This document shows positions 753 to 47,706 of a stretch of 64,000 bases of DNA, piece by piece. Position 1 is the first letter of the stretch; each line of letters opens with the position of its first letter. The DNA comes from Lingula anatina (lineage: Eukaryota > Animalia > Brachiopoda), in contig CM120640.1 in NCBI GenBank assembly GCA_051362555.1, positions 34,677,967 to 34,741,966 on the forward strand. Reading direction: 5' to 3'. The notes under the pieces are model-generated. The model was not told the origin of the DNA. It did no database searches and was given only the letters and a program-made list of their open reading frames with translations. Position numbers and translations under genes: made by a program.

Positions 753-1205
753 GACAGGCGAACCGACTTTGTGGCTCACACCAGTTTAGCACAGCTGGGG
801 GTGAGCTCCGTAGGATCTTCATCTTTCTCCACGGCTCCCCGTCTCTCACACAACCCCAGCACGGACTTCCAACCGCCTTACTTTCCACCACCCTACCACA
901 ACCTACCGCCACAACAGGACTTCCATCACCATGCCGTGAATGCAGCAGACCCCTACTCTCACTTCGCCAACAGTTTTCAACCACACCACCAGTACCCACA
1001 GCTCCAAGACTCCAGGAGTGTACTACGGCGGGATGACCCGCTATCACAAATGCACCCCGCCCTGCCGGGACCCTACGACCGCAGGCTGTACAGTGGACAC
1101 ACCGTACCCCGGCCCGACCTTCACGGAGCTCATACACACGGCCTAGACCAGGAAACTGCTCTTAGTCTTCATGGATCCTCCATGTTGGGAATCGAGGATG
1201 GACAG
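753..1205 (+). CDS. TFAP2: AP-2 exon 2, Pro/Gln/His-rich transactivation domain with PY motif
   Basis: Acceptor tttctgttttatag at 751-752. Encodes DRRTDFVAH...STDFQPPYFPPPY...DPYSH...GIEDGQ, with the hallmark AP-2 motif FQPPYFPPPY. Donor CAG|GTAAGA at 1206. 453 nt, phase 0/0. Confidence 0.95.
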
Positions 1206-7913: not shown

Positions 7914-7974
7914 GGTTCAGTCGATGACTCTGGCAATTATATACCAGGCGATCATAGCTCAGTCATTCGCAAAG
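7914..7974 (+). CDS. TFAP2: AP-2 exon 3 (GSVDDSGNYIPGDHSSVIRK)
   Basis: Acceptor tactttttacag and donor AAG|GTAAGT. 61 nt, phase 0 in and phase 1 out, matching both neighbours. DHSSVIRK resembles the AP-2 exon-3 motif DQ(S/T)VIKK. Not in the ORF track. Confidence 0.85.
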
Positions 7975-10900: not shown

Positions 10901-11476
10901 TGAATACAATTGTAAAATATAGATTTATAGAAATTGAATTACTTTATCGATATATTTTAATAGAAATGAATGATATTCGTTTGAGCAACAAAATACTAAT
11001 GCAATATTTTAGTAGACAATTTTCAAAATGCTTATTTACATGAAATCCGCCTTGAGCAACGACTTTTCTTTCTTTCTGTGTTATATAAGTTTGTTTGCAA
11101 TTCAGACAGGAATATGACCAAACAGTGTATGTCTAGAAATAGTCTAATCGATAACGAACTCTAGTTTAATATTAAGCTGTTCATTTTTGTTAATATCAAC
11201 GAAAACTTTGTGACCATTTAGGTAAATCGTTGTCATAAACGGAGTGAGATGCACTGTAGACGAATTATTTAAATGAGGTTTAGAACCCCAAAACATTTTT
11301 TGTCCAAACGAATACATTGTATTTAAATTAATCTCCAAATAATTTTGGAATATTTTCAAAATACGAAAAAAAAATAAAGAATAGAATAATTACATGTTAA
11401 TGATTTTTAGATGCCAATTTTATGTTATTTTAAAAAATAAAAATTGACAAGACATCTTATGTTCTTTTCCAACCAG

Positions 11477-11678
11477 CGGGTAACAGAATTAAGAGCGACA
11501 CCAAAGACATCGTGATCTCAGGGGTAACAGCACCTACAGACGTGTTCTGTTCAGTTCCCGGGCGGCTGTCATTACTTAGCTCTACGTCAAAATACAAAGT
11601 CACAGTGGCAGAAGTGCAACGAAGACTCTCTCCCCCAGAATGTTTGAATGCTTCCCTATTAGGAGGCGTCTTAAGAAG
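11477..11678 (+). CDS. TFAP2: AP-2 exon 4, N-terminal part of the DNA-binding domain
   Basis: Acceptor ttcttttccaaccag. Encodes ...[46 protein letters not shown](R), essentially the invariant AP-2 sequence. Donor AAG|GTAGGT. 202 nt, phase 1/2. Not in the ORF track. Confidence 0.97.
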
Positions 11679-14600
11679 GTAGGTGAAGCAAAATAAAACT
11701 GTTTAGAATTTTTTTTCGTTAATTTTCCAACTTGTATTTCAGGTTTTTGCAGCCATTTTTAATTAGTCGTTGCTAAAATTATTTTAAATATTTTCTTAAA
11801 AAACCTTTGAAAATTCTTTTGAATGGCACCCATACCCTCCCCGTTGGAGCAGCTTAGAAATAATATTCTTTTGATATAGTTCGTTCTTTTAAGGTCCAGA
11901 AAAACGGACCATGCAAAGAAAAAAGTTTTGTAGGTGAAACAATGTACGAATTCTTAAGTTTGTTTTTCTATTGGTTGAGTTGTCGAGAACAATTCCAATT
12001 GACTGGCAGGAAATAAGAACGGTATTCTGTAAATAACGAATCATTCACCACCCGCTCTCCATTTCTTTACAAATCCAGGGGCATGACACCATAAATAAAT
12101 TTAAACCAAAGTTGCTGAGACATTCGTCAGCTAAATGTACAAATAAAGTAAAATGATATTTTACAAAATAATTATGGTACTGTATGGCCCTGTGGAATTT
12201 TTGGTAAGCTGATATCTTCGAAACAATTACATGCTTGCGCGGATCAGTAACTCCGATTCCTAAATTGTCTTCCGCCATTTGCAAATTATGGGGGATAAGT
12301 CTTAGCCAATTTTCTAGGTTTGAAATTTAGTTCGTACCTGCCGACGTTTCGGTGAACGTTGAGCTGCGTTCGGATTTAATAAAAGGAGTGGTGTATGTTT
12401 AATCCTTTTCCACTCGCCTAGTTGAGAAAAATGCGCCCAAATTGAGACATTTTTGAACACAGACACAGGGCTTTGTCTGAACTAGGTACACCAATTTACC
12501 TTTGATTTCCACTGCTGCCCTTGCTGACCCTTCAAAACCTTTTCAAATGCTACTAATACTCCCGACTATGTAGCCAAAGAATATTTGTATTAGTGGCCAG
12601 CTAAATACTTGAACAAATTGGCGCTTTTTTGGGCCCTGGATAGAGCTCGGGCCAACCCGACTACATTTTAATATTATCTTTCGGCATCATTCCATTACTA
12701 TCTTTTTTATTTGTATAAATCAAGCTGATTTAATTTTATTCAAAGTGACCAGTTGAATCATAAATTATTAATTTATTAATTTAAACTTCATTAATTATTT
12801 TTTGATTTTTTTAAAAATAACTTAAATAAATCTTTTTCTCCCACCCAAGTTGCAGAAAGCATAATTTTTTCTCCATATGAAACTGACCCTAATATTTGCA
12901 TAATCAGTCTTTTCCCTAATCTGGTTAACGAACAAAAACAACCACTTACGGAGAAAAAATAAAAGCACAGGCATCGAGTGGGTCCCGGCCAAAAACGGGA
13001 TTAACCATAAGAGAGGACCACGCAACACCTTTAAACACACAGTTTCTATAGTTGTGAAGTGGAATTAACACCCCTGCCCACTCCACTTCATTAGTTAGTC
13101 TGGGATGCGGCGGGACATATTTAAGTTATTAAACCACAACAATATTTGGGGCAAAACAAAAAGTTCAATAGGGACTTTTGCCCCAGAGGGTGGATCTTGT
13201 TCTAGTATCTCACTGCTACTCCAAACTCAGACATTAAGTAATCAGGTACACACTAAAAGTAAACGACAAGCCCGCCAATTACTACCGATTGAGCGCACAG
13301 AAACAGTGGACAACTGTCAAGAAGTTTTCTTGTTTTGTACTTGGTAATTTTCGTTTCGAATGCCACCCAATTCGTCCTTTATATAGGCCCATTTCTTTGT
13401 GTAAAGTATTACGGAAAGCACACACAGCATTCTTGTAAGGTAAATTTACATTAAGGGTCTATTTAGCGTTTATTTATTGGGTAAGGATCGGTGCTCCCTT
13501 GCAGCCATTTTTGATTGTGCAAACGTCACCATTATGTATTCTTGCGCCCCTTTGCTCTTTGAAGTGGTATCTAACATGCTCAGCTGTTTATTGTGCACAT
13601 GTTTCCAGTTTTTCCTTTCTCTATATTTCACCCTTCCAATCGATGAACTGTTTACTTTGTTCTGTGTTTTTGCAAACTCGACTGGCGGTTATTGTAGGGA
13701 CGCTGTCATCACCACTAAGCAGTGACTCCGTGAACCTAACATTGCAAACGCTTTGTTTGCTGTATATGGTAATTTTTGCTTCGTGAGCAGCTAAAGCATT
13801 AAGTAAACTCCAAAATAATGTAGCCTTCTCAGTCCTTTTGCCACAATCGCGGAGTATTGTGAAATCTCTGGATACCTCCTAATAAAGCTAGAGGATTTGG
13901 TTTGTGTAGGAGCATTATAATGAATTGTTTATACACTTCCAATATTATATGCAGGTTGCATTCAAAGCGGTTGTGCATTAGGTTTTAGTGGATGGTGCTC
14001 CCGTGATCTTTTACCTGAACACCGTGAGTTTTTACAATACCCCTTCTTAGTCATGTTTGAAAGAAGCGATCAGTTCCATTGAATTAAGTCCCATTGGAAT
14101 CGAAAGGTAACCGCTTTTTAAAGGATTCATCGACGCCACGTTTTTATCACTGTGAAACTTAAAGCTGTTTACAAAACCAACGTTTTATTGCTTAATGGAT
14201 TTGACTGTAAATTTCATTCATATTTCTACTCTTCGTTCATTTCAAAGGAGGGCTTCCTCCCCAAAACACGCAGTTGGCCCCAGGATGGGGCTTCTTCAAT
14301 ATCTCTGTTGACACTGACTACTATTGGTGAATAGAAATGTTGTTCCATTTAGTTTTGCCTTTTGTTGACCGGGACTCAAGTGGCATAGGCATGCTTTCTT
14401 CGACAGCCAACCTGGGCTTTGTACCCCTTTACAATTTACAGAGTATCAATCGCTTGCTCCTTTTCCCTTCACTAAAGTCAATTGCTGTTTTCCCCCAGGG
14501 TTTGCTAGGGGTTTTTATGCTTCATTGGCCATTCTTATATCTACCATCCAAGAGGTCCGAAGTTTGCGTTCCGCTGACCAGTAGCTAATTCAACTATAAA

Positions 14601-15672
14601 TTTCTTCTCCTAGTTTTGGAGTAATCCGGCATGAAATGCATTAATAATATAATGCCTTCTATGGGATGTTTTTCATAAAGATTAGAGATTTGTTATGAGG
14701 GCCATTCCATGGACTGGACAGGGGTATTGTCCGTGAAAACAAGTGGTCACTTTTATATGGGATATACGAGGAGTTTAATCAACCGCGGGACTGGACATTA
14801 CTTAAATCTCTCAATTTGATGGATCTTGCACCTACTTGAGTTGGATAAGAGGGTTCGGGACCGCTTTGATGCAGCTCTTTACTTTAACCAAACATTTGAA
14901 ATGCCTTAGCCACACAATTCTATATATTTAATAAGCTTAAACCTGACTATTATGCTTTTGCGGCCATTAAATATGTAATACATTCCTACACAACCCTACT
15001 TTAAATATCTACGCTGCAATTTCGTAACACTGAAATATGGCGTATAGAAAATAGAGAGTTTGATATACTGGAATCAAATTAATTAAAACGTTTTAAGATA
15101 TATACAGTAGCAAATTAGCTTTTCTTTTATTCCCACTTTTCGGTCAAGGGTCATGGTTTTAATGAAAAATTTAAATTGTTTATCCCAAGAAATTCAAAAC
15201 CTGTAATGAGTTTCGCTATCGTAGATTGCAATAGAGGCATTTAGACCCAATTATTTCAGAAAACCTATCTGTCGCGAAAAGATTAATCAAATTTCTCTGA
15301 TTACGTTCAATTTACGGCAACTGCAAATTAACGAATCTGATAATTTGAGATGACAGTGGATGAAATTCCTCTTTGTCAAATGATCGATTAGGTGGCAGTA
15401 AACCGAGACATTGTGTTTGTTTAATCAAAATGTGTCAGTTTTGGAATATAAGAACCATTTTGGTGAACAAAAGTGCTGCAATTATTACACTGGGCTTAAG
15501 AACCATATAGTTTAGGCACGTACATGTTGATTTTATGTTTATTTAATTGTTATTCGTTTAATTGTATTTTCTTTTTGACCAAGCCTTATATTTATATTTT
15601 ATGACGTATGTAGTAAGATATTTTATATTAATTGTTCAATAGTTCGTATATATTGAAATGCTACTTTTCTAG

Positions 15673-15791
15673 AGCAAAGTCTAAGAATGGGGGTCGGTCA
15701 CTCAGGGACAAATTGGAGAAAATAGGTTTGACTTTACCAGCTGGCCGCCGTAAGGCAGCTCCAATAACTCTCTACTCCTCGGTGGTAGAAG
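15673..15791 (+). CDS. TFAP2: AP-2 exon 5a, basic region and start of helix-span-helix (mutually exclusive copy A)
   Basis: Acceptor ctacttttctag. Encodes (R)[39 protein letters not shown](G). Donor AAG|GTAAGA. 119 nt, phase 2/1. Confidence 0.93.
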
Positions 15792-16482
15792 GTAAGAGGT
15801 CACGTGACCTGCGTGACGTAGTGGGCCAATTGCAGTGACGTAGACTAGCCCAGAATTCACTAAAACACTTCGTCATCACAATTTTTTGCATAATCTAGTG
15901 CGATATTGATTACTGATTCTCTTTCATTAAAAGAGCATTAGACTACTACTATTCTGGCACCCTTGGTTTTTATGTGTTTGAGTTGCACTCTTACTACCTG
16001 TGTTTCATTAATACCTGAAATTCTGCCACGTTTTTTCTTGCCAGCCAGCAGGCTTAAACCCTAACTGAAAACACCCCCTGAACGAATGATTTTTAAGGTC
16101 AGCCGAAAGGTTCGGCTGCAAAGGGAGCAGTGCTTCTATAGTAGATGCAAATTGAAAAAAAAGTATTTTTTGCCGTACGAAGCAGAGCTTGCCATTTTTT
16201 AAACCTTATCTTTTGTGAAAAGAATGGTTTTGGAAAGTACTATATGTGATGATGGGTCTAATTTTTTTGACCATGCAGTATAGCCCACTGCAGCGGTTTT
16301 TGCCAACACATGGTAAATTTGGCTAGTCTCGTCTCCTGTTTTTGTCCCCTCTACATGTCTCTAGTGAGGACCAACCCCCGGAGGAATGGGAATATCACAG
16401 TCAATCTATTAAGTACTGCCAGAAAATGACTCAGATTATCGTTATTATTTGGGTACATGTCTTGTCCTTTTTGTCCCTACAG

Positions 16483-16601
16483 GGCCAAAAATAAAGATGG
16501 CGGTCGCATGTTACGCGATACTTTGGAGAAAATGGGCATGAGCTTGCCGGCTGGTCGTCGAAAAGCATGTGCTGTCACATTACTAACATCACTCTGTGAA
16601 G
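16483..16601 (+). CDS. TFAP2: AP-2 exon 5b, paralogous basic-region exon (mutually exclusive copy B)
   Basis: Acceptor tcctttttgtccctacag. Encodes (R)[39 protein letters not shown](G). Donor AAG|GTAGGT. 119 nt, phase 2/1, the same length and phase as 5a. Confidence 0.92.
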
Positions 16602-19600
16602 GTAGGTTCTTTTTTCAATCAATTTGCTGTGGTTTTTACATATTATACATCTTCTCTTACTATGTAGTACTGAATATTAATGATTTCACCCAAAATCACC
16701 TTTAACCTGCACATTGGTAGAATACTTCATTTAGCTGATTGTGATAAGCTGTTTAGTTTTGATATGTTTATTGTTGCCTTGTATAATAGTCATGTGTCGT
16801 TTTAACGACAGTTTAGTGCCACGTTTAGAATATTTTGGGCGTGGTTGTATGTCGGGGTACCAAAAGAACAATATGAACGATCCAACCGTGGGTGAAATAT
16901 GGCGGATGAAATGAAGACTTTTATAAGATTTATGACCCTTTGACTTCTTAAGGAAGATATTCACATTGCGTGGCCGAATCGAAATTCGATATTTATTTCT
17001 AAAGGTGCACTTACTGATTTTAAAGTTAAAAAGTAAGACTGGCCAAGGTGACTGCTGTATTTCTTACCAAAGTCTAAAATATTACTTAAAAGATTAAAAT
17101 TGACCAAAGGACGAAAATATCTCCCAAACTGTCGTGCAGAATAATCATTCACATTTTAGCTGACCTTGCCCAGTATCCAGCACAGCAACAGGCTTTTGAA
17201 AAAGACATTGAAAAAACATTTTCAAAAAAGCTGCAGAAGTCCCCCGTGTTCTATCTATAGACCCAACCTTGTCCCGCACCTGACTCTTCTTTGCAAGCGT
17301 GTGTAATGCACCACTTTGATGTTCTGTCCTACCCCGCACCCAGCTGTTCGGCTTATTACTTTTTGTGGGTAGAAAAAAACGATGACTTTTTAATTCCTGG
17401 CAATGTAAACGTTCGGCCCGCTCCCCTACATAAAGCCGCATACCTATCAGTCGCCATGCGAACAAGATCAGCGCTGGGAAGCACACGCTTTCAAGTTTAT
17501 TAAAATCCTTTTGATATAACCGTTTTCTTTCTTCGTGAGACAAGTGGAGTAATATTGGGTTTATCAAAATGTGATTTCTTTGGATTAAAAAATAATTGTG
17601 AATCGCATTACTTGGTATATAATCATGTCCTCACTTACACTAAACAGCAGTTTTTTTTAATTTGCCATAAACTTTTGTGCTTTTTTCTTATCTCATCCCA
17701 CCTGTTTCTTTACTAAGACCTTTGGTAATTGTGGATTGATTAGTGGGAAAAATGTTAAGGAAAAATCCTGTTCTATCAGAGCAAAGACTCATTTTACCAA
17801 GTGGCGGGATGAGTGGCGACCGAAAAGGGTCTCCTCCCTGGGTCGTTCCCTGATGCGCCAGTCAATACAAGTGCAGCGACAGTGAGTTTGATATGATTCG
17901 ACTTGACGGGACATTTCCAGTTTTGCTATGAAGTACAATGTGTTCAATTTCATAAATTTATAATAGCGATGCGCACAAATAGTAGCACAGCGAGAGGGAA
18001 ATGGGCACTCGACTCCTACTCCTCTTGCTTACGACAAAGTGACTTTTAACAATGCCATCATTTACTCCGTCGTTTGAGCGGAAAGTTTAATTAAAGAACA
18101 ACAAGAGGAGCTTAATTAGAGCACTAATAGTCTCTTCTCGGTCTCAGTAGTATTTCGCGAGGAGAGAGTCTTAGGTTCGTGTGGCAGATATCAATGTGTC
18201 TCAATTATCGAAGCACACGGAAAGTGACGGATGATTAGTCGGTATGTTGTGACACAGCCGAGGAGTGTCGTTATATGTGGTCATTATCCCATCCGTCTGC
18301 GGAAAAAAAAATTGTGGACTTGTTTCTACCCCGTGATTTCTTTAATGATTGTCTGAGAATTAGGATGTGTTTTGTGTGTTTTGCAAAGCGTATAACAGGC
18401 GCCATGAAGGGGAATTTCGTGCCGGAGTAATTGACGTGATTAGTGTGTTCCGAGTTGATATTATGGCATGTTCGGTACACGTGGAACACGCTTGAAAAAA
18501 AAACGATGATTGGAGAAAACACGTAGATATGTTTAGTAAAATATATACATATATTACGAATGGCCATTTTTCTATGACCCTTTTATTATTGTAACTATAT
18601 AATAGCTGTGTAATAGGCACTGGAAAAATTCCGCAAGAGATGGATTATTACAAAAATGAATTGGAAAAGAAACGGACAACTTGGCGTTGACCGCTTTGGT
18701 AACAGATGTATAGTAAAAAAAGGAATTTTAGAATAAAGAAATATTAGAACAGTGACAGATTAATCAGCATTTCCCTATTTTTAATCACCTCTCAAGTCAT
18801 CACCCAATATTATAATTGCTTGAATTTTTATTGTCACATAAATAGAGGCCAATCCAAACAAAGCGGTCAGCCGCGGTTTACGGGGGTGACTAGGAGTGTT
18901 TTAATACTTAGTAGTGGTTACGAGGTTGACACCTCTGTGCTAAGTGGTCGGCAAACAACACTACAATAACGGAGTGTTAAGTAATTAGCCGTCCTCGCAC
19001 TTTTCTTTGGCCTATCACCCCAAAACTAATAAGATTAAACACACAAGGTAAACATTGGTATTTATCTGTTTCTATTAATCTGCGGCAGTGCCGTTGACCA
19101 GATACGACACAAAGGTGAAAAGGTAAATTACAGGAGAATTTAGCGTCCTTCTTGGTCACCGTAATTTCTCATTACACGACTTCGGCCAAGCATGAAGTTT
19201 ACCCCAGTGGAAAATTCTCGCAGGCGCCATGCCATAGGCAGAAGACAATGTTGATCAAATTTGGCGGTATTTTGCATTGATTGCCGTCTGCCAGCATTGT
19301 TTTCTCAATTTATTCTATAAATTTGATGATGTTGAATCAGCCAATACGGCAGAGTTACAGTCTCATAACTTCCCTTTGTTGTGGGATGGGATTTTTAAGA
19401 AAGGTGAATCCTCTAAAATAAGCCAATGGTAGTTTCATGTTTCTTTTCCGGCATGAAAGCGTGTTTTTCTCATCTGTATTTAATGGAAAAATCTGCCGAC
19501 CTTTTATTATGAAAACACGAAAGATGCTCGCCATTTTGGGGTAAATGGACACCATAAAGGAAAGCAGACCTAAAACAAGGCCGTTCCCATCCCAAACTAT

Positions 19601-19796
19601 TCACTTCACGTTGGGTCGTTAATATGTGCAGATTAAAATATCACGGTACAATTTGATCTGTTAACATTTTTGAGGGCGAGTTCGTCAGTTTGATTACTTT
19701 TTAAAACGGATTTTTTTACGTGATATGTTTATTTTCAAAATGAAAACTTACCATGTATGGTGCTTGTTTGTAAATGGTTTGTTGCTTTTTTTGCAG

Positions 19797-19938
19797 GTGA
19801 GGCAATTCGTTTGGCAAGAGATTTTGGTTACTTGTGCGAGACAGAATTTCCCGCCCGACAATGTGGAGAATACGTCGCCAGGCAAACCACCGACCCATCT
19901 GACTGTCATAACAGAAGAAATATGGTTCTAGCATCTAG
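19797..19938 (+). CDS. TFAP2: AP-2 exon 6, helix-span-helix
   Basis: Acceptor gcttttttttgcag. Encodes [47 protein letters not shown](R), matching the AP-2 motif GEAxHLARDFGYxCETEFPA. Donor TAG|GTGGGT. 142 nt, phase 1/2. Confidence 0.96.
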
Positions 19939-20624
19939 GTGGGTTATTTTCCTTAACTGGAGACAAACATAACATTAACAGCAATAATAACCTTCTTATG
20001 GATGTTTTGTCAAATTACTTTCTTTTCCTGTCACAAAAGAACAAAGTAACAAGAAAATGGAAAAAGTTGACATTTTAATGCGGGCGCTATCTCCTAACCA
20101 CCGCCATTTCTGGCTCATTTCTCATACTTACACGCACCGACCTCGGCTCACTTCCATTCATTTAGTCTAACCTATGTCGATTCGCCGTTGCTATTATTAT
20201 TATCATACGGGCTCAAGTCGAAAAATATCTGGTGTGCTTTATTTCTCGAGGCCAAAAGTACTTGACTGCCCAGCTTGACCACAGGTAAACCACTGTGCTG
20301 AGCTAGAGTACCAACGGTCAAGCTGCGGAGAAAGTATCTGGCAGACTGGGAGTCGGTGCAGACGACAAGGCTAGTGCATGCCATTGTCCAGTGGGTCAAA
20401 CAATTCAATATGGTGTGCTGGAGTCGATGCTTTGCCATTTTGATTTTAAAAATGTTGTTTTTAAACGTTCCTTAAATTTCATCGTTTTGTTTAATGAAAA
20501 AAGACACAATTTTAGAGCCTTACGTCAGCGGACTTCGTCTAATATACGAGTAGATTTTGCTTAAAATATGTAATGGAATTTTGTTTCGTTTATCTTACGC
20601 ATATTTTTTTTGCTTTTTTTTCAG

Positions 20625-20931
20625 ACAAATTCTTAAAGAATTGACTGATCTCCTAAACCAGGACCGGTCGCCTCTTGGCAATACGCGTCCACAGATGATA
20701 TTGGATCCAAGCATACAGCGACACCTGACGCATTTTAGTCTAATCACACACGGGTTTGGTTCTCCAGCAATAGTAGCAGCATTGACTGCTGTTCAGAATT
20801 ATTTGACTGAAATGCTCAAATTTATGGACAAAAATTACCCCAGCTCTCAAGGACCTACGTTAGGGGGCGGTGCAACTTCACTCGATTCTAGCGGTAAACC
20901 AAAATCTGAAAAAGACGATTCGCGAAAATGA
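20625..20931 (+). CDS. TFAP2: AP-2 last coding exon, second helix and C-terminus
   Basis: Acceptor ttttttttcag. Encodes [65 protein letters not shown]...DDSRK*, with the motifs DRSPLG and FSLITHGFG. Exons 2-7 with one exon 5 total 1284 nt, or 427 aa plus stop. Confidence 0.96.
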
Positions 20932-22787
20932 AGAAGAAAGGAGCACACACCACCACTGTTGGGAACTTAACGGTGCCAGCTAGTGGTTGTCTTTGAAAAT
21001 GCAGGGATATTTTCTTACGTACGCAGCAGACGCTAAAGCTCTACGTCTTTACAGGGTCCTTTGACCTTTCACTTTTTTCATTATTGGATAATGTCGAGAT
21101 TGGCTTCATGGGACGACTCAACATCAAGTTAAATTGGTGCTGCCATGTTATGCAAAGGACTATTTGCGTCAGAACTTGTGAACGTGGTGTGACTGTAGAT
21201 ACTAGGTATTTAGAAAAACGGGGTAATTGTATAGCGACAGCCTCCAAACCATTCCACAATTTGCAGACTTTATGTGGACATTTATTCTTTCCCAAGTAGG
21301 GAGACAGACTTTCTTCCAATCCGATAAAGAATTTTAAAATTCCACAAAACTAAGTTATCAAAACAAGAGAGTAAGTGGAATCAAGAGAGCGATGAAACAA
21401 TCAAAACATTGTTTTTAACAGTTCATGACACTTCAGGGCTATTCGATAAACGTGTAAATATTGTGACTGTAATTCTGAATTCTCACTTTTTACGTAGTGT
21501 GCTTGCATATAAGATGATGGTCCATGTTGATATAAAATATATCTATTACAAAGAGGAATTAGGGATAGATGCCATTTGAATTTGCTACAGGTAGTTTGGC
21601 GATTTAAGAACAATCTGGAGTCTTTTTGCCAATGTGCCTTTAGTAGGAGCAAAGTGAGTTCCCAACTTTATTTTAGTTTGTACATCTTTCCCAGAAGATA
21701 CTCAGCAAACGACGTTTGCGCATGCGTCAAATGGTCTCAGTCCCACCGTGCTTTTTGTCGCAATATTCCCAATAAGATGTCTGCTGCCTTGTTGCCTTTT
21801 TATTTAAGTTGTTATAGTCATAAAAAGATGGAGGAAGTTCTGCTGTTTAACCCCCAAATTTGACCTGCCGAAATGTGTTCTATCACGTCTTGGTTTGTTT
21901 TGATGAAGTGACCAGTAGCTCAGTTCGCGCGCCAAAGATGGCGTTGAATATGAAGAGAGCTATTGGTGCTGATATACAACGATTTGTATTTCTATTTATA
22001 TATGGTAGATGAAGTTTGGGGGCTGAATCAGGGAGGTATTATACCACGAATGTCTTATCAAATGATTCTAGTCGCATAAAGTTAGATATTTTGATATTTT
22101 CAAATTAAGATACAGTATGTCGTATCCAGTCGATCTAGCCAATATGTACAATATTTGTTTTTTTGTTTTATTCAGAGTCGGTCTTTGACTGAATGTTTTT
22201 TCTTAAAACAATGTTTGTAGACATATCACATTTGAAGGTGCATCTCTTCTAATAGCGAACTTTTTTGAAGTTCATTTGACAAAGATAAATATATCAATAA
22301 ATATAATCTAGTGAATGACAGACCATTTACCCCAAAGTGGGGGAAACAGCGAGTCCGAAGACCGTACGTAACAATGACGTTACTTTGCTTTGACTACATA
22401 AGAAATTGTGGGCAAAAAAGGGACTGCCCATCGTTAAGACTTTGTGAAAGTGTACGTGTATGGCAAACCTCAAGCTCATGTAAGTGAGGGTATAGTAGAT
22501 AGCAAATGGGCTTGAGCGGTGTGTGTTTATTAGTGTTACCACCTTGTTTTGTAGAGGGGGTTGAGATTTAGTCCTTTTTTGTGCAGTTTTCACCCAATCC
22601 CTATATTGTCTGCAATTCGTAAGCTTCCAGTTGTACTATTAAAGGGCCTGTGTTTAAGAACACTTGGGCCGGGTGACTACGTATATAACAGTGCACACAA
22701 CGATCAAATCGTACTTAATGTTGACTATATTTATATTTGTAGACTTTGTAGATTGAGGAATAATACTACAAATTCGTGTTGACTTGT

Positions 22788-39385: not shown

Positions 39386-39960
39386 TTTTGTTCCTCGTTT
39401 TTGTCAATGTTGGGTCTGGTAAGCAAGGGCATCTCATATATGAGATTCATTAGAAAACATGCCATATTTAGCATGACATGTTGCTCGCTTGTCTCTGTCT
39501 CTGTGGACGGGATTTGACCATTGACATTATCCCTTTTAATTACCAGTTTCGTTTCGCAAAAAGTCGCCGACCTGAAGACGTAATGGATTGTTTTGACTTA
39601 TCAGCTATTAACTTTGGCTCTGTGAAAGCAATCATATTTGGTCTGTATCTTTTGTAAGTATTTGTAACTCGATATTGACAGTACTCTTTCAAATTTTTCA
39701 ATCGGATGCACCCCAGTGGATATAATTTGACATAAACTTCATTCCGCTTTGATATCCTAGCCCAGAGTTCTTATCATTTGTGTCGTTAGTTCTATTATTA
39801 CAACTCTCATGCGTTTCTGGTGAATATTTTTTGGGTGCAAGAAATCGTCTACCGTGGTAGAAAAGAAGCTGTTCACTTTTTTATCATTTCAATTTTTTCT
39901 GAATATATGTCTATGAATATTTTAGAATTTATATACATGTAGATGTACTTTACAGGGGAA

Positions 39961-39964
39961 AGAT

Positions 39965-40014
<50 letters not shown>
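39961..40014. repeat. (AAAG)n(AGAT)n tetranucleotide microsatellite
   Basis: agatagaaagaaagaaagaaagatagatagatag... Confidence 0.9.
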
Positions 40015-43000
40015 TTGCACACATACAGCAAAGTCCACAATAAAAGATACTCCCACATCAAATGACCGCGGTGTTAGGAGCATGTTAGACTATATGTTTT
40101 GCAATGCAACAATAAATTTGTGCAGAACTGTAGGCAGTCTGCTATTTAAAATCAAGGGGAAGTTATTGAGCGATTGCACTCGCGGTGAAGAGAGAAACGT
40201 GTTCAAGCAACAGAATACTAAGAACTATTAGAGAAACATCGTGCATCTCGTCGTTCCAATCATTTCCGTCGCCTGCCAGTTTGAATTTTGAAAATACCCG
40301 TGAATTCATTTCTTGCCTGGCGTCAAATCGGATTAATTCCAGTAATCAGGAAAGAATCTCAAACAGAGCCACTTATTTGCACAATCCTAGATAAATGCTT
40401 TTTTCTCCAAACAATAACAATGACATAAAACGCCGTTAGATGGCCTTCATTAAATCCATAAATCGTAGTTGTTATTATTGAACATTATCTCGTCCATTTG
40501 TCTCGGCCTGTCTCTCTGATTGTCTTGTCTACTTTACTTTTCAGGCTTCATCGTATTCCAGTTGGGTCTTGAGGAGGCTTTTAACTGTTTTCTATACTGT
40601 AATGGTCCGTCACAGGGGAGATGCAGAGGTCTGTGAAAACGCGAGGGCGATTACTAAAAAAACTTTGTTCAACTCTCCTGAGGGAAGGGAGGTATCCCTA
40701 TAGGGCAAAAAAATCTATGTCTTCGAGATTGGTTTTGCCAAGCATTTGGTACACATATCGAAACAGTGTAGACACATTAAGATGGTTCATATTGCGTCTC
40801 AACTTATTTTATTTTGGCATATTTTTTTTAAATTGAAAATCCCAGATAAATTGCTTTTTAGATCCCTTTGGTCCGAAACTCAATCGTAGAATCCCAATGA
40901 TTGCAGTTAGGGTACAGATTAGGTTATTTTATCATATTTTGGGCAAAATCTGTCACCTGTGATTGGGCAATTAAAGAACCTTGCATTCCGTGGGACAGAT
41001 AGCTTAGTCTATGACACGAAAAAGCAGTCGATATATTTGTCTATAGTAAAACGATGCTCTGATCGACACACCGGTCAAAGCAGGGACTCAGAACTGACTC
41101 GATTATGGGAAGAGTAAACGGCGCCATATACTTTGCAGGTTGTCGATGATCTTTACATTACAATATCGGCATTAGAAACCCTTCCGTCCCTGTACGAAGA
41201 TTTACTATGCTAATAAGCTCTACAGCTGTTGGATAACATGTAGATTTCCAGCTTGGGTGTCTGACGCTTCTCTTCGATGTGAAATGCTTTAGAAACGCGC
41301 TTCTCAGGTATGAATTATGTGTGGTGCATCTCTTTCATGTATGATGGGGTGATGTTGCAGGGGATATTACCAGGTGCAATTATGTTTAAAGGCGCTAGAA
41401 GCAAGAGCAAGATGTTTGGATTCCCTTTCCAAATATCAAAGATCAGGAGTCGTTCCTCTAAATTTACCATCTAAGTAATTACGCACCAAAAATCAAAATT
41501 GAGAGGTTAAATGGGGTCCAAAAGTACCTTAAGTCAACTAAGGAGCCGTTATATAAGGGGTGTAGTGGAATGTGATTTGATTCCGCGATTTTTCCGCATC
41601 ATGTGAAATCAGAGCGTTCTCAGTGTGCTGTAATTAAGTGCACCACTTTGGTTAAGACAAGTGTTTGAAATGTGAGCTCACCACATCAAAAACAGAACCA
41701 TCAAAATGAAATTTCTGAAGTACATATTACTTGTAGCAAACCTTACAGTACCATGAAATTCAACTTACATTTCTCACCTTAAACTTTTGCGAGCACAATT
41801 ATTTCATAGGACCAAAAAAAAAAAAAAAAAAAAATTGTTGGGGTATGATACACCCCGCTCTCACGAGGTCGATTTGGTTTTGTAATAGCGATGCATACAT
41901 ATTTCTTCGGGGATACATTAGTGCATTCGCCAGGCACTATAATTTGCAAACCCAGTTATTGGAATCGCAATCCCAGAACCCGACTGTGCTGGGGCGAAAT
42001 TCCAGTAAGGTCGCGCACTGCTAATAAGACCTCATTCTTTAGGTCACTTAACACCAGCTACATTTCTAAGATTCAAGAACCAATATATCAAACAAAAACT
42101 CATCATTTGATTTTAAAAAAATCTATATCCTGGTAAAGCATAGAGAACAAAGCACAATTCCCCGTCTGTCTACACGAGCTTAATAAGGATTCTTTCACAT
42201 GAAAGACAACTGATAAGACCAAATGAATTCTCCGACTTATCCGTCCTACAGCGGTTTTGGTTTGTACATTTGGGTTCTCCGCTGCTTGATACTGTGCGGA
42301 ACTTAAATCGCAGCGGGTAAGGGAATGGCTTGTCAAAGGATGGACGTTTTTCAATTCTTATTAAATCCTCTTCTCCCTTTCAATCGTTTTAATCAATTGA
42401 GTGAAGGATGACTTCATTCCTCATAGGATTCGGTCACTTAAGACCCAATGTCGTTGAGGCGAATGTAATTACATCTCGATCACGTATCTTTTTTTCCAAG
42501 AGACATTCACTCAGTTAAGAAAGACACTTTCAAGATCAATTTTCTTCAAGTGTCTTCATTATTCCTTTTTGATAAAGGAGTCACTTGCCATTTTCTTTGG
42601 TGGAACCTTCTTTGCATATACTGTGCCATGGTGCCGAGTTTATTGCATATTACCTCTAAAGAACTGTGACAGAACGTTCGTTCTTTCTGCCGAGTGGTTT
42701 TATTTATTTTAAAGTTATTAACAATCGCCACTTTTAGATATCTGACCACTGTTAGTAGATTTGTTTTGACGGTCGTCATCAATGTTTGTCATCAAAACTT
42801 ATATCTTATTCCCGACTGTTTATTGGAATCGATTATACATATGGCATCAATATGTGAAATGCTATCGAAAATTCAACACGCGGCCATAAGCAAAAAAAAA
42901 AGAATGTTTTAGTGTTTATTTTTTCCAACTTGATTAATTCAAAATACACTTTGGAACTACATGCATGTGATATGTTCGCCAATTTAGGCTGTTAGAAGCC

Positions 43001-46000
43001 GCATAAAAATAAAGGTGGTTAAAAGTAGCCAAGTCCTATATTTTACAGTTTTGCCCAACGGTTTACTAGGTCATAGTTTCGAGTTACCCCAAACGAGGTT
43101 CTCTTTTTCGAAAATACGGCCATGCGGAATGAGTGCTGATGAAAATGTGACTACTTGATGGCATTTCTCGTAGAAGTTTAGCTTTTGGTAGCTCCGTTCC
43201 AGTGACGTCTGCTGCTCTACTGGAACGAATATTCTTGTCTTATAGAGATGAACTTTTAGGATCCAGAAGCCGTACGACGTACAAAATGTATTGTTACTTT
43301 TCTGTTCTTTAATGAGTGTTAGGGATCAAAGTACTTGAAAGTTTTCTACCGGAATCGGTGGCGCAGTTGACATTATTTCACGACCAAAACAGTCGCGTTG
43401 TCTTCGTATGAATAAGAAGCCAACAGTCTGTGCCATATAGTCATATACTGATGATGTATTCTTTCATGAAATAAAAATATTAAATAAAAAAAACATAGAT
43501 ATATGTAGGTTAAATTTCCATTTCTACCGTTTTTATGTGCCCACAGTGTAACCAACTTTTCACCTATAGTTATTTCAAAAGTCACGTTTATACGCATTTT
43601 GATTGTTTTAGTTTTGTAAAAGATATTTCTAAAGTGAAAGTTAATCCTAATTCTATTCTAAAATAATGGAAATTAACGTGATTCTTTTATAAGTGAAAAT
43701 ACAATAGTTTGAGCTAATTCTCATAGCTTCATGCAGTTGAAAAAAAGGGTGGCAAAAGATATGGCGACATCTTGCGTGTCTTTGGTCGGTCATACGTAAA
43801 CCCCAATGAGCATGGTAATCTTATTCCATTTGTGTTGTGATAAACTTTAAATAAAAAAAAAAACTTTTGAAAATCAAAGTGCCAGATCAGTTTTTAAAAA
43901 CCCTAATACAATAACCAATTTGTGACTTGGGTTAGGCGCAGAGCGTAATCAATATCTTTGATTTTCTGAGTAAACGTGCAAACGTGGAGGTCAAAGATGA
44001 TGGAATCGCGTTCGGTCTGCATGCCAAATCTCACGAATTTTTCTTCAATTTATAACCAAACTAATAACCAGTAGCGTAAAAAGTAAGAGTGGCCCTTTCT
44101 ACTTTATTCCAATCCCAGGCGTCCGCTCTGTGGGACTTGTAAATTGAATTTATGTCTAACAGTCTCGGTAGTCGTTAACAGTATTGTATAAGTTTGTCTA
44201 TTACTGACAAAACAAAACTTGAAAAGGATGACTCACCGTATACTTGAAGTGGTTATTCAAATATTCACTTCTCCGTAAGTGATCTGTTTTCAAGAATGTC
44301 CGTCTTTGCCTCGAGCCGGGACAGTAGATTTCACATTTTATTTCCTGTATTCCTTATTTTTAATAAGACTTGAAGGGATCCATCTGAAACGCGTTCAAGA
44401 TAAACTAGGACTGATAATTTCACAATAACTTGCAACTTTCCCCCAAGGCCGAAAGATTGTCGACTCGCTCGATAGTTGTAAGCTGTATTATTGTGCGTGT
44501 CTTCTGTAATTGACAAAGGATACCCAAGGGTTAAAATAAACTCTTTTGCACACTATTCTATCTCCTTTTCACTTAATACTTCACAATAGCGTTCATTGCC
44601 CCCAAAATTTTACATTGCGTCCCTCGACACAATTGCGATGGTGCCTGGGCAAACGTTTCGTTTCATTGGTGCGTCGATCACTTTCTGTTGCTTCGGTCTG
44701 TGATTCTTAGTCCTTTTTTATTTGTTTCGTGTATTGTTTATCATGATTTTATCTTGTATCTGTTGCCACGTATTGGGAATAAGCCATTGTTCAAAGATAT
44801 CTGTCTTACTAAATAGTTCTCTAAATTTGCTATTGACTTTGTAATATTTAATGCGCACAGCTGTGTTCACGAAAAAAATGTCCCAATTTATTGGCCATTA
44901 CTGCTGATATCAAACTCCAATATAACCCTATTACAGACATCTGGTTGTTGAAAGCTTTGATTTTTAGGCATAACTCACAATTTCCTTATCCAGAAGACCT
45001 ATTGGTATTTATACGGTGCATCGCCATCATTAACATTTCTATTTAGCTGTCAGTCGCACAGCTTTAAGCCAAGGAACCATCATTAAGTCTATTCTTCACT
45101 GTTGGTCCTTATCACTCCTGTGGGGCCGTTGAATTGATGGTGATGAATAGGAACTCATGAGCGCGTGGGGTATTGCATAATCACCTTTTAATTAGCCACA
45201 AAAACAGACTTCGTTTTGATGTGTGTGCGTATAAAAAACTGACCTTGAAGCCGAATGGAGGTTGGCTTCAGAAACAAAAGACGGTCTTGTAAACAGGACA
45301 TTGCATGATTATTGTACATAATAGCTGCAAATTAAGACATCTCTTCATCGACTTGGTTACAGGCTACCCAAGCTGAAGAGTGTGACGTGGCAATTTGTAT
45401 CGGGTAAACTGATGGTAATGACAAAATATTCGATTTAACGACGGCTCGTCATTCTACCCACTTTTCTTTGGGCAGGCAACGTAATAAAGTTGTCAAAAAG
45501 ACAATAGTGTTTGGGAATAAGGGAGTACGAAAATTGTATAATCGGCGTTGAATAAGTCATATAAAAGACGTTTCGTATTGATGTGACCAAAACCACCACA
45601 AGGACATACACCATAGTCCATGTTTTGCAGTTAATAAGATGCCAGAACGGAAGAGAATCCGACAAGTAGAAAGCATAATTGCGATTCTTATCCCTTAGAA
45701 AGAGAGAGCAGAGCTAGAGGACTTTAGATTGGAGAATTAGACCGAAGTTAAAGAACTTTCATGTAAAGCTACAAATAGGTGTCACAGGCAAAAGAAATTG
45801 CGACAACCTGAAAAAAAATTATTCGATGAGAAACGTTTGGTGATGTAAACGCAGCCTTTTTACTTGCTTCTAAACTTCAGTAGATTTTGGCATACTGAGC
45901 TAAAATATGTTCTGGCACACCGGGGGAAGATTAATTATTTCTCAATTGCAAAATGAAAACGATTTAGATCAACTAATTATGCTTGACTAGTCACAGTGCT

Positions 46001-46918
46001 TGAGTAATGGAGTCTAAAATGATGTATATTCTATGAATAAAAACGACAGATCACACTTCAGATCCGATTAGTTTGTAAATATAAATAAACGAAACAAATA
46101 ATAATGGGAAAGTTAGGAAAAACTACGGAAAATGTCCTCAGATGACGCCTACGCCAATTGTTGTGTTAAAATGCATCCTTGAATGCCCAGGACAGCAGAA
46201 CACGAGCAATTCAATAGAGGTTGACGAAACTTTGACAAATACCAACGTCATTGGCACACTGATCCAACACAGGCTCTAATGGTCCCTTAACTTGAAATGG
46301 AAAGACCATTAGATAATCAAACTTTTAGAATGCCACGCCAGCTTTTTCAAGTGCTTTCTCATGTTTGTTTCATCGTTTTGCTATCTGCTTGGCACCGTAG
46401 GCGACATTCCAAGTTCTCACCGCGAGCCGTGCCTAACGGAGATTTCTGTGGCAAACCCCCTTGGGAGACATTTGTATAAGAACACAGCCTTAAATGTGCT
46501 GTTAAGGACCTTAAATGAGACGACTAGAAATCATTAAAAAGTGCAACAATTCTTTTAAAACGCCCCGTTAATGGGGTTCCTTTTGGACAAAGCTCGATCG
46601 CATCTTCGCACTTTAATCTACCACAGCAGGAAAGAAGTGTCTAATAGCTCGAAGCTTGGTTGTATTCTACCTTTTGAAACTATCGCGTGTTTCTGAATCT
46701 TCCCGTCTCGTATTATCTAGTTTATACAAAGAGGTTCATTAAAACCATGAACATTGCAATTCGAGTGGAAAGTAGTAGGCTTTAGCAAGTTAACCGGCGG
46801 TTTCGGTGGTTTTAGAGATTCGCGTGTTTGAGTATCTCAAACAATCTTAACCTTAAGCCCTTAATGTCACGAATGAGTTCTTAATATGTAATCTACCAGG
46901 AGTCAATGAAACACCTAC

Positions 46919-47314
46919 CTGTAAATACTTGACGATCTTGCACATGATCGGGCCCATGAAAAAGGTGTAGGTGATGTCTTCTAAACAAGTAGATGGGAGG
47001 CAAATCAAAATAACCATGAAGTCCGCAATGGCCAAATTTACAAGGAAAATGTTTGTAACGGTTCTCATGTTAGGGTTCTTCCACACGGCGTAACACACAA
47101 GGAAATTGCCAACCAAACCCATGACAAAGACAATGATATAAAACGCTATAGCCACCCATTCAAACGTCGTAGGAAAGATGTACGCTTCAATTTTGTCAAT
47201 GTAGTCTTCGTCACTTGTACAATATACATTGTAGCATATTTTTGAGATGTTCTTCGTCGCGTTTGCTGCAGTCAAGTTGTCCATGCCTTCGTCCGTGATT
47301 TCGCTGTCTGCCAT
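46919..47314 (-). CDS. HCRTR: Orexin/allatotropin receptor first coding exon (N-terminus, TM1 to start of TM3)
   Basis: Encodes MADSEITDEGMDNLTAANATKNIS (three NxS/T sequons) ...YIFPTTFEWVAIAFYIIVFVMGLVGNFLVCYAVWKNPNMRTVTNIFLVNLAIAD...CKIVKYLQ. YxxPxxxEWV and MRTVTNxFxVNL are orexin/allatotropin-receptor hallmarks. Donor CAG|GTAGGT. 396 nt. The five exons total 1293 nt, or 430 aa plus stop. Confidence 0.95.
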
Positions 47315-47706
47315 AATGGTTAATAAATGCTACGTATATTGAAACGCTCGTCCCCCAGGAATGAAGTTCAAAGCACTTCGCGCTTTTTGAAGCCTTATCG
47401 AGAAAACTGTTGGAAGACCTTCGAATTCACTGACTTTTTCCTCAATTTCTGGATCAATGATAAAGGTTCAAAAGTCCTCAGTCGGTACTAAATTGCGGCT
47501 TCTAATTGCCTCGTTGTTGTTGCAGTTGTGGCATGCACGGCAGTTAGTAAGTTTGAACCATTCAATGAAATCCAACACAGCATTCAATGAAATCCAACAC
47601 AGCGGCTGTGCGCAACCTCATCTAATTCTCATGCGTCAGTTAAGCTCGGAGCAGAGTGGTTCTTCTCTGACTAGCTCTTCATCCCTTGATTTCACCAATC
47701 AATCCC
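47315..47706 (-). other. Putative 5' UTR portion of the receptor's first coding exon
   Basis: A good minus-strand acceptor (cttcctatttgtcatttcag, AG at 47708-47707) suggests the exon starts at 47706 and that a non-coding exon lies further upstream. Confidence 0.45.
47559..47602. repeat. Perfect 22-bp tandem duplication
   Basis: CATTCAATGAAATCCAACACAG occurs twice, back to back. Confidence 0.95.

Follow-up and report, generated by a model that had tools for sequence, protein, structure and literature searches.

The closest described system is the E12/E47 pair of TCF3/E2A. Exons 18a and 18b of this gene are similar, lie in tandem in the DNA-binding region of a dimeric factor, and are used one at a time; they encode the bHLH region, the choice between them changes dimer preference, and hnRNP H1 and PTBP1 act as regulators (available text of PMC6795145). 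Duplicated exons that alternate within or next to a DNA-binding domain are also found in MEF2C (alpha1/alpha2; PMC7140685, in the part available) and in FOXP1-FoxP (in the accessible supplement of PMC9741552). In a more general sense, the accessible portions of two surveys (PMC5740500, PMC9741552) describe tandem duplicated exon substitutions as homologous exons of the same length and frame, not divisible by three, that lie inside a folded domain; one copy is the default and the other is minor, and convergent origin in orthologues is common. For AP-2 itself, human TFAP2A-E form homo- and heterodimers among the family (PMC10450164, available text), and an alternative product, human AP-2B, is a truncated splice form without the dimer domain (PMC7140685, available text).

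The AP-2 gene of Lingula anatina carries an alternative exon in old tandem duplicate, comparable to that of TCF3 E12/E47 and new for AP-2. As in TCF3, two similar exons, probably used one at a time, lie in tandem in the DNA-binding region of a dimeric factor, and as in the surveyed exons one copy is the default and one is minor. Unlike the TCF3 exon, the AP-2 exon encodes Loop2, helix 3, and the linker, and the dimer domain is common to both forms. Unlike the human paralogs, which are separate genes, the two Lingula versions are exons of one gene. The window, i.e. the whole stretch of 64,000 nucleotides that was analysed, contains the following features of this gene; residue numbers are those of human TFAP2A, and those of the duplicated exon (256-294) were taken from PDB alignments.

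753..1205, plus strand: exon 2, N-terminal region rich in proline and glutamine (RefSeq isoforms match at 100% identity by tblastn)
7914..7974, plus strand: exon 3 (RefSeq mapping; its end equals the loose RNA end that precedes exon 4)
11477..11678, plus strand: exon 4, encoding S222, S247, and R254 in the first half of the DNA-binding domain, present in both forms (RNA joints)
15673..15791, plus strand: exon A, the minor copy, 119 nt, residues 256-294 (sequence, spliced reads, RefSeq X2)
15792..16482, plus strand: A-B intron, 691 nt (sequence and RNA depth)
16483..16601, plus strand: exon B, the dominant copy, 119 nt, residues 256-294 (RNA joints 11678-16483 and 16601-19797, loose ends, RefSeq)
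19797..19938, plus strand: exon 6, start of the helix-span-helix dimer domain, present in both forms (RNA joints)
20625..20931, plus strand: last coding exon, remainder of the helix-span-helix to the stop codon (joint 19938-20625)

Both copies are bounded by AG and GT, are in phase 2/1, contain no stop codon, and have the same length. They are identical at 69 of 119 nucleotides and at 25 of 39 residues, and 18 of those 25 residues use different codons. The reading frame is kept whether exon 4 is joined to exon 6 through A or through B. Joining A to B leads to a TGA at 16539-16541, 60 nt before the end of B; if both are skipped, exon 6 opens with a TGA, 138 nt from its end. Both stops are therefore upstream of later junctions. 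The initial annotation had described this layout and these frame outcomes from the letters of the window, and both were reproduced. The copies are thus adjacent, homologous, stop-free, and equal in length and frame, as is characteristic of tandem-duplicated mutually exclusive exons. A lenient profile search of the 64-kb window found exactly two copies and no third. It had also been claimed that the pair is neither a recent duplicate nor an assembly artefact, and this held. The flanking introns have no common repeat beyond a 16-nt exon core, synonymous sites are saturated, and RNA reads fall on both copies; an artefact was rejected on these grounds. Chance similarity was rejected as well, because the Pfam model TF_AP-2 (PF03299) scores 256.7 bits with A and 252.8 bits with B against a cut-off of 23.4. 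AP-2 structures in the PDB (8j0q/8j0k) match at E < 1e-100, and exon B is a 100% match to a Lingula anatina RefSeq protein.

The RefSeq isoforms map onto the exons of the window by tblastn. Isoform X1 (XP_013408010.1) is the B form and isoform X2 (XP_013408011.1) is the A form; both are 481 aa long and they differ at 14 positions, all inside the exon. The RefSeq cluster comprises eight isoforms (P0003, P0124-P0130, the A form being P0128), seven with B and one with A, a ratio that is not a measure of usage since the seven B isoforms differ in their first exons. The eight proteins have seven different N-termini, which points to many alternative first exons upstream of the window; tblastn found none of these first exons within it. 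The initial annotation had presented the two isoforms as novel, and to that extent it was anticipated by RefSeq, an automated annotation that is silent on mechanism, usage, and function. No account of duplicated AP-2 exons was found in the searched literature, which consisted mostly of papers outside subscription, nor was there an entry for TFAP2 in the main text or searched supplements of Hatje 2017 (PMC5740500) and Martinez-Gomez 2022 (PMC9741552), catalogues that cover human, fly, and worm and have brachiopods outside their range. The pair stands in RefSeq without comment and is apparently not described in searchable papers.

Usage of the two copies was assessed in seven of nine raw RNA runs of the same species, each sampled at about 6-26%. 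Five runs had coverage (X1, X2, X3, X7, and X8; these run labels are distinct from the RefSeq isoform names), and two (X4 and X5) yielded no reads. The region 11300-21200 was read in runs X1, X7, and X8 and the region 15400-16900 in runs X1, X2, and X3. Joints were listed at three or more reads, mates may have been counted twice, and read numbers are tiny. In runs X1, X7, and X8, respectively, the joint of exon 4 to B (11678-16483) is covered by 6, 13, and 13 reads, that of B to exon 6 (16601-19797) by 8, 23, and 14 reads, and that of exon 6 to exon 7 (19938-20625) by 11, 16, and 13 reads. Loose read ends at B in runs X1/X2/X3 number 6/18/15 before the exon and 8/17/7 behind it. For A, three reads in run X1 carry loose letters that match the end of exon 4. 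Depth in run X1 is about 7 on A and about 9 on B (15400-16900), and in run X2 it is 2 on A, as expected from a pair of reads beginning at the acceptor (70 = 2 x 35 base-depth). There are no reads on A in run X3, and the A bin is empty in run X8. Therefore, B is the default copy, and A is minor and is spliced at its acceptor in some samples. The A:B share is 3:6 in run X1, at most 2:18 in run X2, and 0:15 in run X3. The sample-to-sample difference in A share is borderline (Fisher p = 0.05 for run X1 against runs X2 and X3; 0.024 against four runs, with depth-based guesses for A).

Several joints stayed below the three-read threshold. These are the A-B joint and, at low depth, the A-exon 6 joint in all five covered runs, the exon 4-exon 6 skip joint in runs X1, X7, and X8, and the exon 4-A joint in the scan of 11300-21200 in those same three runs. 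No loose end was listed at the A donor in runs X1, X2, and X3 (15400-16900). The junctions by which the initial annotation proposed that the pair be judged were consequently seen in part: exon 4 to B, B to exon 6, and exon 4 to A at a low level were present and A to B was not listed, as expected, whereas A to exon 6 was not listed either. That one copy is never spliced, which was to count against the pair, is not the case, since exon 4 is spliced to both. For the joining of A to exon 6 the one source is the RefSeq model of isoform X2, which suggests that it occurs, and mutual exclusivity of A and B is not fully validated. Intronic reads are present throughout the region 11300-21200 in run X1, and depth of about 2 runs beyond the A donor into 15808-15858 in that run. 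Within the A-B intron, 15910-16113 has a depth of 4-6 in runs X1 and X2, which may represent read-through mates or unspliced RNA. A further stretch in the exon 4-A intron, 14610-14940, has a depth of about 5 in run X1, with no exon-like copy at that place.

The splice signals suggest how B could be preferred. The acceptor of B has 17 pyrimidines in 20 positions and that of A 12 in 20, and the donors are alike with 7 of 9 consensus matches each. It is reasonable to suppose that B wins by default via its stronger acceptor. Steric exclusion is tied to distances of less than 50 nt (Hatje 2017, PMC5740500, available text); with an intron of 691 nt whose branch-like motifs lie far from the A donor, simple steric exclusion is not suggested. 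Transcripts that contain both copies or neither would be removed by nonsense-mediated decay, which is the simplest safeguard. In Hatje 2017, reads that join the two exons occur in just 83 of 377 clusters of this kind, from which it follows that the spliceosome as a rule keeps away from the joint by means other than decay. For exclusion by competing RNA pairing of the Dscam type, the best candidate, between exon A and the B acceptor, did not exceed chance, as it was matched by 76 of 300 synonymous recodings and by 5 of 127 tiles; Rfam gave no match in 11679-19796. Directly after the A donor, at 15798-15841, lies a cluster with a perfect 12-bp E-box palindrome that occurs once in the window, two TGACGT, and one CCAAT. 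A similar cluster lies behind the second copy in L001, a metagenome locus with a tandem pair (see below), and is absent from its relatives L002 and L004; an intron element common to the 3' side of the copies was not supported.

The consequences for the protein can be read on the solved structure of AP-2. According to Liu 2023 (PMC10450164), the base readers are K257, S222, and S247, the backbone contacts come from A256, S258, and N260, and K259, R263, R266, and K282 make up a charged surface. The loops serve as a ruler for the 3-bp spacer, and the helix-span-helix spans residues 293-422 with dimer residues V307, F379, V391, and L398 (PMC10450164). The duplicated exon covers Loop2, helix alpha3, and the linker that precedes the dimer domain. 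In A, Loop2 and alpha3 are near-canonical and the changes lie in the linker (N285P, V286I, L289Y, T290S, L292V). B is changed in Loop2 and alpha3 (S258N, N260D, S264M, K268T, I272M, L274M) and also at A284C, N285A, and V293C. Base-reading and disease-critical residues are kept in both forms (K257, A256, G262, L265, R266, R281, T287, S222, S247, R254), as are the four charged-surface residues and all disease-linked positions of the exon. All 151 other distinct peptides that were compared have K257. Among these 151 peptides the residues of B are found 2 times (S258N), 43 times (N260D), and once (K268T), and those of A 3 times (N285P) and once each (L289Y, T290S, L292V); T290 and L292, altered in A, are near-invariant (150/151 and 147/151).

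Based on the sequence, A and B are predicted to recognise one motif, GCC-N3-GGC, and to differ in the affinity or geometry of binding. The unchanged K257 of the exon and S222/S247 of exon 4 would preserve specificity. B would differ in its backbone grip, with two backbone contacts altered and one lysine lost, and A in the linker between the DNA-binding and dimer domains. Since N260D is common in other AP-2 proteins, the effect of B on affinity may be small. A second, divergent AP-2 gene of Ostrea edulis (P0289, XP_048762263.2) encodes a full-length protein that has the D260 of B together with the P285 and V292 of A, and such changes therefore appear to be tolerated. The initial annotation had proposed that exon choice alters DNA binding or dimerisation. 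The differences lie at backbone contacts in B and in the linker in A, and dimerisation is weakly supported: the named dimer residues lie outside the exon and the dimer domain is common to both forms, so partner choice is not expected to change. An AlphaFold model of the B form was set aside on account of its mean pLDDT of 45.5.

Comparison of the copies gives pS 0.89 and pN 0.27, i.e. synonymous sites are saturated, and this agrees with the proposal that the duplication is old and that purifying selection has acted on both copies, although it comes from a single genome and recent relaxation of A is possible. Set against 64 other exons, A has a median pN of 0.13 and B one of 0.20, at pS 0.83-0.86. 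Relative to the molluscan peptide, A has 6 changes, none of them in residues 256-274 and five in 285-292, and so keeps 33 of 39 canonical residues; 220 of 20,000 shuffles were as tight, for an eight-residue window that was picked post hoc. Of the 9 changes in B, six lie in 256-274. The changes of A and B are complementary across the exon (Fisher p = 0.028), a pattern that fits functional divergence better than even decay. An intact exon is in itself of limited weight: after neutral drift of 0.05-0.1 per site it was still intact in 43-64% of simulations, so that A could have been relaxed recently.

The same exon occurs in tandem elsewhere, and the arrangement is not peculiar to this lineage. 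In a metagenome scan that favours pairs, as its query alignment was led by a two-copy ORF, and in which the best 80 of 283 confirmed loci were kept, four of these 80 (L001, L002, L004, and L036) have two tandem 119-nt copies with AG/GT ends, separated by introns of 75, 59, 65, and 44 nt, respectively. Four ORFs from other animals (P0004, P0005, P0155, P0156) also contain two copies; a further two-copy case, P0006, was dropped as a fused two-gene fish model. By comparison, 24 of the best 80 loci reach from exon 4 to exon 6 and have a single copy in between; three of these look intronless and many are near-duplicates. Among the annotated isoforms listed for abalones, snails, oysters, tardigrades, an acoel, a sea anemone, and vertebrate TFAP2B there is one exon version per species, though further copies may have escaped annotation; those of the acoel that are of equal length differ only in the N-terminus. 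Two AP-2 proteins of 399 aa, P0448 and P0449, differ solely at two adjacent residues in the exon and may be alleles or another exon pair. A search among proteins of 73-2000 aa gave no B-like relative (1 hit in 23 candidates), which is weak evidence.

L001, L002, and L004 come from related species. Their first copies match each other at 98-103 of 119 nucleotides and their second copies at 97-108, compared with 88-92 across. In a tree of 66 exon DNAs, the first copies group together and so do the second copies, with support of 95 and 84. In L001 and L002 pN is 0 in both copies, with pS of 0.51 and 0.36. Conserved non-coding blocks lie 600-1100 nt upstream of the first copy (L001 4148-4393, L002 3802-4449, L004 596-900) and may be splicing or enhancer elements. 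The tree is saturated at depth and was put aside as a guide to deep origin, as it cannot separate one origin from several. Copies within pairs differ at position 264 in 8 of 9 cases, a position that is variable in AP-2 peptides anyway, at 289 in 8 of 9, and at 285 in 5 of 9, where four of the nine represent one clade. Y289 is present in 3 of 14 tandem peptides and in 0 of 136 single-copy peptides. The different intron lengths and diagnostic residues and the opposite order of the copy with Y289 would favour several origins. From these comparisons, tandem AP-2 exon pairs are probably recurrent in other animals.

Other roles for A can be envisaged. It might be mainly regulatory or truncating, with read-through yielding a short protein without the dimer domain or an unstable RNA, and with B providing nearly all functional AP-2. 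Exon 4-A reads are present and A-exon 6 reads are not listed, depth continues past the A donor in run X1 and over 15910-16113 in runs X1 and X2, read-through would meet a stop after 15 codons, and an ATTAAA stands at 15926 in the A-B intron. There is also a precedent, as human AP-2B, which lacks the dimer domain, inhibits AP-2 (PMC7140685, available text). Yet a full-length A isoform is modelled in RefSeq, the A donor matches the consensus as well as that of B (7/9), and, run X1 being intronic throughout, the apparent read-through may be unfinished splicing. Retention of 33 of 39 canonical residues together with both splice sites argues in the same direction, and we consider a chiefly truncating role unlikely, even if human AP-2B, as we presume, arises at the same exon boundary. 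Low use of A (three junction reads in one of the five covered runs), its weaker acceptor, and its rare residues at near-invariant sites could also mean that B has displaced the original exon, A, which is now decaying and whose splicing is residual noise; the intact frame of A would be compatible with a short neutral drift. Decay fits less well with changes that are clustered, none of the six falling in residues 256-274, or with N285P and L289Y, which require three and two base changes, respectively, from the codon present. Moreover, the P285/V292 pair is also found in the oyster gene and Y289 recurs in tandem copies at the frequencies given above. Decay of A is thus quite unlikely.

A different question is whether A and B switch DNA sequence specificity or spacer length and so select different sets of targets. 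The switch between exons 18 and 18b of FOXP1 changes sequence preference. B alters both loop neighbours of the base-reading lysine, S258N being found in 2 of 151 peptides and the other change being N260D, the loops are the ruler for the 3-bp spacer (Liu 2023, PMC10450164), and the linker differs in A. The three residues that read bases are nevertheless common to A and B, unlike in the FOXP1 switch, and the five human paralogs bind similar motifs (PMC10450164, available text). A switch in specificity is, in our view, very unlikely. The explanation that we prefer, and regard as fairly probable, is that of two tandem, diverged exons, with B as the default and A as the minor copy, which are likely alternated to give two full-length proteins that are predicted to read the same motif with different affinity or geometry. 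In line with the RefSeq model, A would continue into exon 6. As the dimer domain does not differ, AA, AB, and BB dimers would be expected wherever both forms are expressed.

Further downstream in the window, at about 32400-47330 on the minus strand, lies a multi-exon gene for a receptor of the rhodopsin family (Pfam 7tm_1), which we take to be orexin/allatotropin-receptor-like.

Alternative exons within DNA-binding domains are few and are often developmentally important, as in E12/E47. The DNA-reading loop of AP-2 is nearly invariant in animals, and the dominant form in Lingula has nine changes from the molluscan peptide, two of them at backbone contacts. A and B constitute a natural two-variant experiment on a solved structure, in which 14 differences fall into a DNA-interface set and a linker set. 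If duplication of the AP-2 exon is recurrent, a transcription factor would join the convergent cases; those in the available part of the published catalogue are enriched in ion channels and membrane proteins. More tentatively, AP-2 may harbour a hidden splice switch that was re-evolved independently across invertebrates, with pairs that differ at the same positions giving tissue-specific dimers of tuned DNA binding; we regard this as possible though rather doubtful. If it is true, splicing would do for AP-2 in these animals what gene duplication does in vertebrates and oysters.
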